Source: an uncultured delta proteobacterium (GTDB taxonomy: Bacteria > Desulfobacterota > Binatia > JACPRU01). From it: a stretch of 64,000 bases of DNA. The notes under the pieces were generated by a model. It was not told the origin of the DNA. It worked only from the letters and a program-made list of their open reading frames with translations, and did not search any database. Every line of letters starts with the position of its first letter. The first letter of the stretch is position 1. This document shows, piece by piece, positions 25,277 through 27,898 of this stretch. The stretch covers positions 320,001-384,000 of the forward strand of contig CAVUWD010000011.1 of assembly GCA_963745025.1 (NCBI GenBank), read 5' to 3'. The translations under genes and the position numbers were made by a program.

Positions 25277-25741
25277 TGCGTTGATTTCCTTCTGATCGCC
25301 GGCTCACCCTGAGCCCTGTGCGAGGCCCCCGGTGGTCAGCAGCAGCGTGCTGACGCCGACAACCCTCACCGCAGTTGCGACCTTCTTCATTGTCATCCTC
25401 ATTGTCATCTCAGATCCTACGGGTGAAAAATCGCCCAGGCAACGTCAACGATTCGCACGGGACCGTTGCGATCGACAGCCATAGCGCCACACAAGCTTCG
25501 CGCCCCACATGACGCGAGCCATCGGGCGCTGGTTGCGTGTTCTCGGTTACGCACTTCTCGACAACCAGATCAGCCTATCCTGCGGCATCATGACGCTGAA
25601 ACACGTCGTCGAACCTCTCGATCACTTCGGAGGTGTTTGTGTAGTCCATGACAGCTTCACTGTTTGTGACACGCGACGAAGCGCGGAAGCGCGGTTGACA
25701 GGTTGTTCGCGGGCAAGGTAGGGCCCACCCGGAGGTTGACC

Positions 25742-26572
25742 ATGCCTTGTTGGAACGTCGAAGAACGCGACGGGATCGTCGTCGCCGCGCACAATAACCC
25801 GCCGATGAACTACCTCGTCAGCGAGGGGACGGCCGAGCTCGCCGACCTCGTCGAGAGCTGGCGTCGGCCGGAAGTACGGGTGGTCGTGATCACCGGCGCT
25901 CCCAAGGACAAGTACATCACGCATTACAGCGTCGAGGAGCTCGTCAAGCTCGGGGACGACCCCCATCGGCTCCGACAGCTCGCCCGCGGGCTCGTCTTCG
26001 GGTATCACACGCTGCTCCGTTCGCTCGCCTATCTCGACAAGCCCGTCATCGCCGCGATGAACGGGGACACGATGGGCGCCGGGCTCGAGCTATCACTGAA
26101 TTGCGACATCCGGATCGCCCAGCGAGGAGACTTCCGCATCGGCTTCCCCGAGGTGGCGCTCGGCATCCTGACCGGCACGGGCTCGCAACTGCTGGCGCGA
26201 ATGATCGGCGTCGGGCGCGCGCTCGACTTCCTGCTGCGCAGCCGCACGGTCAGTCCAGAAGGAGCGCTGGAGCTCGGCATCGTCAACGAGCTCGCCACGG
26301 ACGCACGGGCACGCGCCCTCGAGGTCGCCGAAGGCTTGAAGTGCCTCTCACCGGTGTCCGTGGTCGCCGCCAAGCGCTCGATCGTGCGCGGCGCGAACCT
26401 GCCGATCGAAGAGGGCCTTCAGATCGAGGGCGAGGAGTGGTTGAAGACGATTGTCACCGACGAGGCCATGCGGCTCATGCGGGACTACGTCGCACAGCCA
26501 TTCGAGAAGCGCAGGGAGTGGATCCGCGCGCACGGCGTACCGCCCGCAGCCGGGAGCGCCACCGGAGCTTGA
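25742..26572 (+). CDS. Enoyl-CoA hydratase/isomerase family protein
   Basis: NPPMN, KPVIAAMNGDTMGAGLELSLNCDIRIA, GFPEVALG. Confidence 0.9.
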   Translation: MPCWNVEERDGIVVAAHNNPPMNYLVSEGTAELADLVESWRRPEVRVVVITGAPKDKYITHYSVEELVKLGDDPHRLRQLARGLVFGYHTLLRSLAYLDKPVIAAMNGDTMGAGLELSLNCDIRIAQRGDFRIGFPEVALGILTGTGSQLLARMIGVGRALDFLLRSRTVSPEGALELGIVNELATDARARALEVAEGLKCLSPVSVVAAKRSIVRGANLPIEEGLQIEGEEWLKTIVTDEAMRLMRDYVAQPFEKRREWIRAHGVPPAAGSATGA

Positions 26573-26617
26573 GCGTCGCCCGAAGCCCGGGGACGGTCCG
26601 CCTCAGTCCGTGGAGCA

Positions 26618-26996
26618 GATCACGGCCAGCGAAGCAACGGGAATGAGCGCGCCGCGTGTGACCCGCACCCGATCAGTTTTCGCACCACTCTCGAGGAGAC
26701 GGACGCGGTCGGTTGTGGTCGGCCCGTACTCGAGTCGATCACAATCGACCGCAACCGCGCGGAGCGCGGAAGACAATCACCCTCGACACTGGTCTATTGT
26801 CTTCCGCGCTTGCGCGCGGTGGCTGGATTTTCCGGTCGACCCGAATCCGGGCCGACCGGAAAGTCCAGCGCTTCCGGATCTCGAGCGCCGGAGGCGAAGA
26901 CTGAGGCATCACGCGCCGCGATCGCCGCGCGACATCGCCCTCCCCTTTGCTGGGATCCGCGGCGTCCGTTTCGCCCGCGTGACGCCCGGCCCAGCG
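26618..26996 (+). ncRNA. Candidate structured non-coding RNA (multibranch, four abutting hairpins inside a long closing stem); family unknown
   Basis: Hairpins at 26705-26752, 26754-26820, 26822-26869 and 26870-26895; closing helix 26673-26681 / 26896-26904; most non-Watson-Crick pairs are G-U on the plus strand. Confidence 0.55.
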
Positions 26997-27016
26997 GCCT
27001 AGCCTCGGAGAGGAAC

Positions 27017-27898
27017 ATGGAAACCGGAAAATTCCGCGGTTTCGAAATATCGATCCACGATCCCGGGATCGCGCTCGTGACGTTCGATCGGCCCGAGCGC
27101 CTGAATGGCACGACGCAGCACATGAAACGCGACCTGGTCGAGACGCTTCTCCAGGTGCAGATGGACGACACGATCCGGGTCATCGTCTTCACCGGCTCCG
27201 GGAGAGCATTCTCCGCCGGGGACGACATCACCGGGCGCGCCGTGGAGTACCCGGGAGCCCGGGCGCTCGTCCCCGACATCCCGCCGGGACACGATCACCC
27301 GACGGGAACGTATAACGGGCTGCGGGCGATCTCGCAGCCGCTGAACCTGGCGGTGAGGAATCTCGACAAGCTCACGATCGCCGCGGTCAACGGTGTGGCG
27401 ATCCAGACGGGTCTCTCGCTCGCCCTCGCCTGCGACTTCCGCATCGCCTCTACGGAGGCGATGCTCGGGAGTGCGACGCTCCGCTTCGGATTCCTGCCCG
27501 ACGAGGGCGGGCAGTTCCTCCTCGTGCAGCTGATCGGCGTCGCGAAGACGATGGACTTCCTGATGCGGAAGCGGATCGTATCGGCCGCCGAGGCGCTGGA
27601 GCTCGGTCTCGTCCACGAGGTGGTACCGCCCTCGGAGCTGATGCTCCGAGCAATGGACCTCGCCCGCGAGCTGGCGGAAGGACCGCAGGTCGCGATGCGC
27701 ATGCTGAAGCGGTCGATCTACAACGCCGCCGAGATGACGTTCGCTCAGGCGCTCGACGAGATCGCAGCGAAGACGGCTGTCAGCGACCATCACCCCGACG
27801 CCGCGGAGGGCGTGAAGGCGTTCCAGGAGAAGCGGGCTCCGCGCTTCAACCGCTGGATCGAGGAGCGTAGATCGGCCGCAGCCAAATCGCCGCGCTAG
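27017..27898 (+). CDS. Enoyl-CoA hydratase/isomerase (PaaG-like)
   Basis: FDRPERLNG, TGSGRAFSAGDD, IAAVNGVA, LALACDFRIA, EGVKAFQEKRAPRF; RBS GGAGAGG. Confidence 0.9.
   Translation: METGKFRGFEISIHDPGIALVTFDRPERLNGTTQHMKRDLVETLLQVQMDDTIRVIVFTGSGRAFSAGDDITGRAVEYPGARALVPDIPPGHDHPTGTYNGLRAISQPLNLAVRNLDKLTIAAVNGVAIQTGLSLALACDFRIASTEAMLGSATLRFGFLPDEGGQFLLVQLIGVAKTMDFLMRKRIVSAAEALELGLVHEVVPPSELMLRAMDLARELAEGPQVAMRMLKRSIYNAAEMTFAQALDEIAAKTAVSDHHPDAAEGVKAFQEKRAPRFNRWIEERRSAAAKSPR

Follow-up and report, generated by a model that had tools for sequence, protein, structure and literature searches.

Correia/NEMIS in Neisseria, ERIC/IRU in enterobacteria and RUP/BOX in pneumococcus are bacterial MITEs that form hairpins. 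These elements are small and non-coding, they have many intergenic copies with inverted tips and target duplications, and they adopt stable hairpins in single-stranded form, as does the element described here. For insertion sequences (IS) of the IS66 family, 8-bp direct repeats and tips beginning with GTAA are typical features. A member of that family from Deinococcus geothermalis, ISDge4 of the ISBst12 group, is reported with the tips GTGACTACTCAGCA and GTAACTGCTCAGCA, an 8-bp direct repeat and a single transposase gene (PMC12898284).

We analysed a window of 64,000 nucleotides, meaning the whole stretch of DNA presented above, in which a large structured RNA candidate had been placed at 26618-26996, between two crotonase genes. 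The original prediction offered three readings: an unrecognised ncRNA, a 5' leader for the enoyl-CoA hydratase gene downstream or a non-autonomous mobile element. The third is borne out by a dispersed repeat family of 98 loci with inverted tips and 8-bp duplications, by an IS with matching tips in the same genome and by an empty site. We have little doubt that positions 26657-26912 represent a 256-bp MITE with IS66-type ends, moved most likely in trans by the resident IS.

The upstream flanking gene (25703-26572, plus strand; Pfam ECH_1, 1.1e-26, and ORF list) and the downstream one (27017-27898, plus strand; ECH_1, 4e-51) both belong to the enoyl-CoA hydratase/isomerase family and lie outside the element. 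The element starts 84 nt 3' of the stop codon of the former and ends 104 nt before the start of the latter, whose ATG at 27017 is preceded by GGAGAGGAA, a ribosome-binding site. Prediction over 26300-27200 yielded no promoter-like and no terminator-like site. The native spacer also contains a G+C-rich hairpin of its own at 26950-26995, separate from the MITE, which ends approximately 12 nt 5' of the ribosome-binding site GGAGAGGAA of the downstream enoyl-CoA hydratase gene. This stretch is also present on the contig with the empty site (run X1, see below).

The element proper is shorter than the 26618-26996 unit first proposed, and the flanks beyond 26657-26912 are specific to this locus. An identical 8-mer, GCGCCGCG, stands on both sides of the element, at 26649-26656 on the left and 26913-26920 on the right, and occurs as a single copy in the X1 contig; the two occurrences are the target-site duplication. 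The left terminal inverted repeat (26657-26684, plus strand; TGTGA...TCAGTTTTCGCA) is common to eight copies and aligns with the left ends of the family, the left tip of the window's subfamily differing from that of the family by an insertion of 7 nt (TGTGACCCGCACCCGATCAG...). The right terminal inverted repeat, GGCGAAGACTGAGGCATCAC (reverse complement GTGATGCCTCAGTCTTCGCC), occupies 26893-26912 on the minus strand; it is defined by the family alignment and agrees with the tip of the IS66-family IS that resides in this genome. Two additional outer pairings had been included in the predicted structure. One of them, CGCGTG/CACGCG, is made up of the terminal TG/CA of the element and the partly palindromic duplication GCGCCGCG, and the other, GCAA-GGGA/TCCC-TTGC, belongs to unrelated, locus-specific flanking sequence.

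Between the ends, three hairpins follow one another, each supported by the fold, by an inverted repeat and by covariation: H1 (26705-26752; inverted repeat I2), a 48-nt palindrome; H2 (26754-26820; I4), 67 nt long, central and on the symmetry axis of the element; and H3 (26822-26869; I3), a second 48-nt palindrome, related to H1 in inverted orientation. The fold and the inverted repeats reproduce these three hairpins as they had been described, and the fold also contains the predicted closing helix TCAGTTTTC/GAAGACTGA that encloses them. The fourth hairpin of the prediction, H4, is present as a palindrome (I5) within the right subterminal spacer (26870-26892), yet it forms in an alternative fold only, as the minimum-energy fold pairs this spacer with the left subterminal one (26685-26704).

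The description of the hairpins as unrelated in sequence was only partly right. H1 and H3 represent one hairpin type in inverted orientation, related as an inverted repeat over 45 nt at 73%, and their loops in the family, CCGTACTCGG and CCGAGTACGG, are in most copies the reverse complement of each other. The argument that differing hairpins speak against a repeat array, for its part, overlooked that the entire block is the repeat unit. With three long palindromes, H3 being an inverted version of H1, the element as a whole is quasi-palindromic, and its match to its own reverse complement is almost as good as that to itself. No transposase gene could be accommodated in 256 bp, the full copies of the family being approximately 245-280 bp long. 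Stop-free frames run through most copies, which is uninformative at 66% G+C.

The fold is real and far beyond chance. The plus strand of 26618-26996 folds at -221 kcal/mol, compared with -161.8 ± 5.0 kcal/mol for dinucleotide shuffles (z -11.9), and the minus strand at -217.6 kcal/mol (z -6.9), with none of 100 shuffles as good on either strand. The strength of the predicted structure is thereby confirmed on both strands. As for a known RNA family, Rfam covariance models gave no match at the gathering threshold over the entire window. When the search of 26400-27200 was relaxed to E up to 10, only chance-level matches appeared, the best being MIR8788 (23.8 bits for a threshold of 124), along with sbcD RNA (17.2 bits for a threshold of 40).

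The copy number shows that this structure is not unique. In the genome to which the window belongs (5.65 Mb in 20 contigs), blastn with a 251-nt query (26660-26910) found approximately 40 places, among which 7 full-length matches of 96-100% identity and some 30 more of 77-92% identity over the core. Aligned end to end, the 7 full-length copies share 94-98% pairwise identity. Two rounds of nhmmer gave 196 hits on both strands, which merged into 98 distinct loci; most of the loci match the model almost equally on both strands because the element is a quasi-palindrome. Together they amount to 19.6 kb, i.e. 0.35% of the genome, and are dispersed over 16 of the 20 contigs, 50 of them being at least 230 nt long. 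Alignment of these 50 full copies with 45-nt flanks revealed sharp boundaries, unrelated flanks and inverted tips, with terminal inverted repeats of approximately 20 nt whose consensus is GTAACGCCTCAGTCTTCGCC on the left and GGCGAAGACTGAGGCATTAC on the right.

Target duplications were sought by setting the element ends 5 nt outside a 13-nt tip core, at the 41 loci with two inward-facing cores. Flanking 8-mers with at least 7 of 8 identical letters were found at 10 of these loci, 7 of which are perfect. Ten other offsets yielded 0 or 1 such locus, and with shuffled partners the mean over 200 shuffles was 0.30, no shuffle exceeding 3. The other 31 loci fall below this strict test because their tips contain indels, their flanks have decayed or their cores were paired wrongly. 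The window's subfamily comprises 7 copies and one older relative. Inspection by eye of the eight copies with the window-type left end showed duplications with 8 of 8 letters in three, including the window copy, 7 of 8 in two and 6 of 8 in one, and duplications shifted by 1-2 nt in the remaining two.

Several members of the family are deletion variants, for example of 142 bp (tips and H2), 148 bp (tips and H3) or 200 bp (H2 and H3). All three types have kept both tips and have duplications of their own, with 7-8 of 8 letters. The existence of such shorter, tip-bearing variants with duplications indicates that the hairpins are modular and that no single one is indispensable. The family thus contains variants with one, two or three hairpins, and every transposed deletion variant that we examined retains at least one. 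Two MITE copies, at C13:239720-240009 and C8:227763-228035, harbour an internal tandem duplication of H2; such copies appear as two adjacent partial loci with H2 in common.

We also came across a second dispersed repeat in the same genome, outside the window. It is approximately 85-95 nt long and has some 30 copies, which are clustered and co-oriented with a spacing of 1.5-23 kb, with sharp boundaries and mostly unrelated flanks. Examples are found at G000 C17:11316-63176 (8 copies, minus strand), C4:61-17634 (5 copies), C6:513456-522621, C16:825928-852997 and C11:244520 and 246992 (loci L154 and L155 among the examples). An internal GTAAAGCCTCAAT resembles an IS66-type tip, yet it lies away from the end of the unit. 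This second repeat has no Rfam match at E up to 0.01, and its fold surpasses those of shuffles by a small margin only (z -1.8 and -2.5). It could be a cassette boundary, or possibly the end of another element.

Which enzyme moves the MITE is suggested by the IS of the same genome. A search with PF03050 gave three full hits and one partial hit. The corresponding IS is 1882 bp long and present in three copies, one at C19:80230-82111 and two in tandem on C6. Both of its ends carry the tip GTAAGGCCTCAGTCTCCGTA (GTAAGGCC... at C19; GTAAGGCCTCAGTCTCCGT...), and its 8-bp duplications are AACGATCG on both sides of the C19 copy and CTTCTGGA on C6. It encodes a 468-aa ORF (L033:1021-2427) with the domains PF03050 DDE_Tnp_IS66 (6.2e-38) and PF13005 zf-IS66 (1.1e-6), preceded by a 105-aa ORF (L033:684-1001) with a borderline match to DUF6788 (27.0 bits for a cut-off of 27.2). 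The usual three genes do not fit in 1882 bp; yet the 105-aa ORF is present, so that the IS may not strictly be a single-ORF element. The end of the 105-aa ORF overlaps the 468-aa open frame in a different frame, and the two ORFs could specify separate proteins or a frameshift fusion. On C6, the two IS copies are in direct tandem (G000 C6:484411-488185) with the 8 bp CTTCTGGA between them; the same 8 bp recur after the second copy, and the left flank of the first copy is different. This tandem may be an IS dimer or may result from insertion beside a pre-existing copy.

The IS and the MITE family match in their tips and in the 8-bp length of their duplications. Allowing up to 4 mismatches, the 20-nt IS tip occurs 28 times in the genome, 17 times at MITE loci, 6 times at IS ends and 5 times elsewhere, compared with a mean of 4.5 occurrences for shuffled IS tips. 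Beyond the tips, the MITE interior and the IS gave no nhmmer match at E up to 10. We infer that the resident IS66-family transposase is the mover of the MITE because approximately 16 of 20 tip letters are identical between the two and because they reside in the same genome. As the left tip of the window's subfamily is asymmetric, owing to its 7-nt insertion, recognition of this subfamily by the same enzyme is assumed.

An empty site was found among public sequencing data. Logan contigs of four public runs were compared with the window over 26300-27300. A 916-nt contig from run X1, a sediment metagenome, follows 26300-26647 with 13 differences and resumes over 26912-27300 with 8 differences. 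It skips 264 nt, corresponding to the 256-bp element plus one 8-bp duplication, and 9 letters fit either side of the joint. In a relative with approximately 97% identity, the two crotonase genes are therefore separated by 180 nt and the element is missing between them. The filled site is represented in run X3 by a 151-nt contig identical to the window, which bridges the left junction. The single RNA run contains 5% of the words, and its contigs cover 27223-27300 only, which is uninformative on transcription of the element.

The locus and the element family were also compared with genomes of related bacteria. A genome of the same genus (G001) has the orthologue of the upstream gene, with no sign of the downstream gene next to it. 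As for sister copies of the element, the flanks of L002 are 12 bp apart in G001 and the element is absent, the spacer differing beyond a clean excision; those of L003 are approximately 2.6 kb apart; and only one flank of L004 is matched. The family has 28 matches in G001 and 5 in a genome of another genus of the same taxonomic family (G005), the latter with the same architecture of tips and hairpins. No match was found in 5 other genomes of that taxonomic family, which are 65-82% complete, or in 33 genomes of other families of the class. A scan of public genome contigs for the hairpin-loop pattern returned at least 75 stretches, most of which are single chance hits; among the matches listed, the element family is found only in one 'uncultured delta proteobacterium' MAG, with 7 loci. 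Loop-pattern matches that recurred in Phycisphaerae/Tepidisphaerales do not belong to the family according to nhmmer. Distant blastn of the element against PLSDB plasmids gave no match.

The hairpins themselves raise the question of the level at which they are kept. Covariation was measured in an alignment of 42 copies with 68 pairs, using 500 shuffles and partners slid along the alignment as controls. Standard pairs occupy 92.9% of the cells, compared with 84.1% in shuffles and 30-41% with slid partners. Thirty-one pairs have changed on both sides, 12 of 21 in H1, 16 of 21 in H3 and 3 of 26 in H2, and none of the 500 shuffles reaches any of the covariation measures. In the 42 copies, 97.4% of the cells are paired in H1 and 95.8% in H3; in H2 (helices 2-5, 26 pairs), the outer stems hardly vary at all, and pairing in the inner stem amounts to 84%. 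H1 and H3 share a fixed skeleton, GC...TT...TCG..CCG-loop-CGG..CGA...AA...GC, that is found across copies and in at least two genera, and within each stem two boxes are free to vary in sequence with their complementarity always kept. The pairing of the hairpins is thus clearly maintained.

An excess of G-U over A-C pairs had been taken to favour a structure of the plus strand in single-stranded form. This holds for the window copy, with 5 G-U pairs in H1-H3, but not for the family, in which the ratios of G-U to A-C are 44:8 in H1 (22 of the G-U pairs coming from one inherited column), 56:43 in H2 and 12:20 in H3. Nor is there a preference of strand, the model-sense strand having the better fold at 45 of 80 loci (p 0.22). 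In same-direction contexts, the transcribed strand has the better fold in 24 of 47 loci and the worse one in 23 (Wilcoxon p 0.90), and the element has the same orientation as the flanking genes in 22 cases and the opposite one in 25. According to a crude gene call, 73 of the 98 loci are located outside genes. The call classified 76% of the genome as coding, with over-extended 5' ends (a stricter first caller, with 56% coding, was discarded), and because of this over-extension the 25 gene-overlapping loci are mostly edge overlaps. The intergenic loci show no bias of context, with 41, 16 and 16 in tandem, convergent and divergent positions, respectively, for a background of 57%, 22% and 22% of the intergenic length. 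The absence of any consistent G-U bias and of strand, orientation or context preference points to a palindrome at the DNA level rather than to a strand-specific RNA.

The best-placed rival explanation is that the MITE has been co-opted, its hairpins acting in the crotonase mRNA as a stabiliser, an RNase target, a partial terminator or an insulator. Correia and ERIC MITEs do act at the RNA level in such ways. The window copy sits between two genes of the same strand, at the distances given above, its plus strand folds better than its minus strand, and pairing is strongly conserved in the family. However, the relative with approximately 97% identity does without the element at this site, no terminator-like or promoter-like sequence was predicted around it, and the family-wide figures for transcribed strand, orientation, context and G-U pairs that we have just described all go against such a role. 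We therefore consider co-option improbable. Should the two crotonase genes be co-transcribed, the hairpins would be included in the mRNA, and any effect there would be a by-product.

A second rival explanation regards the hairpins as palindromes of the REP/BIME type spread by a RAYT (Y1/HUH) transposase, the inverted tips being incidental. In its favour, the element is a modular mosaic of long palindromes with variants of one, two or three hairpins, and two hits of Y1_Tnp (PF01797) in the genome exceed the cut-off. Nevertheless, defined inverted tips together with duplications of 8 bp are characteristic of DDE transposition, the tips match those of an IS66-family IS, and the family loci nearest to the Y1_Tnp genes are more than 5 kb (C11) or approximately 27 kb (C13) away. 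In addition, the hairpin units, of 48-67 nt, are longer than classical REPs. Taken together, these observations make a RAYT-driven spread very improbable. The Y1_Tnp hits are located at G000 C13:188500-188823 and C11:419866-420189 (L077 and L078), in open frames of 342 and 398 aa, which exceed the usual length of IS200 transposases.

As the third rival explanation, a structured ncRNA unique to this locus or a riboswitch-like leader at the 5' side of the enoyl-CoA hydratase gene, to which the very stable multi-hairpin fold and the position 5' of that gene had pointed, can practically be dismissed given the 98 copies in all kinds of intergenic context, the family's lack of orientation, strand or context preference, the close relative in which both genes are present around an empty site, the lack of an Rfam match above chance level, and the same-genus genome in which the upstream orthologue was found without the downstream gene beside it.

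To return to the IS66-type MITE, we conclude that it inserted in a 180-nt spacer between two co-directional enoyl-CoA hydratase genes, thereby duplicating the 8 bp GCGCCGCG, and that its mobilisation would have been effected most likely in trans by the DDE transposase of the 1.88-kb IS66-family IS. As for the hairpins, we infer that they are kept at the level of the DNA or of the element. Template-switch mutations render the two arms of a palindrome complementary. Such switching would mimic compensatory change without selection on RNA. Quasipalindromes are described as hotspots of these mutations (PMC7202029). Alternatively, intact hairpins may be needed for propagation. The palindromes might thus correct themselves by template switching, or they might be kept since single-stranded or cruciform DNA aids propagation.

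The double changes in H1 and H3 (28 of 42 pairs) are not expected of a purely selfish, decaying element, and some structural requirement exists. It is tempting to speculate that the three hairpins are functional modules rather than filler, either as a cis-requirement of IS66-type transposition or as a structured DNA or RNA module that the host uses and that is carried on the MITE, an idea that we put forward tentatively and consider rather unlikely. In the case of a cis-requirement, the transposase, or else the product of the small upstream ORF of the IS, might for example recognise a DNA intermediate in single-stranded or cruciform form. If true, functional hairpin modules would provide a handle on the poorly understood IS66 mechanism. 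The strict maintenance of the hairpins could likewise bear on substrate recognition by IS66-family transposases, whose mechanism is little known.

Our study also corrects a first impression, as a convincing signal of structured RNA, with a z-score of about -12 and covariation, is produced here by a palindromic MITE. Since such an element mimics the signal of an ncRNA, no intergenic fold should be declared an ncRNA until copy number and empty sites have been checked. For IS66-type MITEs, this family from an uncultured lineage offers a clean example with recent activity, a partner IS, deletion derivatives and a natural empty site. Full-text literature searches yielded no description of an IS66-derived MITE with such an architecture.

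How the element compares with known systems depends on the feature considered. Like REP/BIME/REPIN sequences, it is a modular mosaic of imperfect palindromes in which pairing is kept via compensatory changes. Unlike these RAYT-associated sequences, it has terminal inverted repeats, 8-bp duplications and longer units, and no family locus is found within 5 kb of either Y1_Tnp gene. The element also resembles hairpin-forming MITEs. MITEPsy1 and MITEPsy2 of P. syringae are described in PMC3189936 as small, non-coding and hairpin-forming, with many intergenic copies, inverted tips and duplications, all of which apply here. Nevertheless, Correia/NEMIS, ERIC/IRU, RUP/BOX and MITEPsy1/2 have no sequence relation to our element, and their tips and duplication length are different. 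Moreover, three separate hairpins of 48-67 nt are present in our element in contrast with one foldback in those families, and it displays no bias of orientation or context. Compared with MITEs derived from IS66-family elements, it is distinguished by an interior in which no similarity to the IS was detected outside the tips. Lastly, the partner IS may differ from the ISBst12 group by the 105-aa ORF ahead of its transposase gene. It is nonetheless of similar type, being short (1.88 kb) and combining DDE_Tnp_IS66 and zf-IS66 domains, and in the MITE and its partner IS, as in ISDge4 as reported for that group, the tips start with GT(A/G)A and contain CTCAG, and the direct repeats are 8 bp long.
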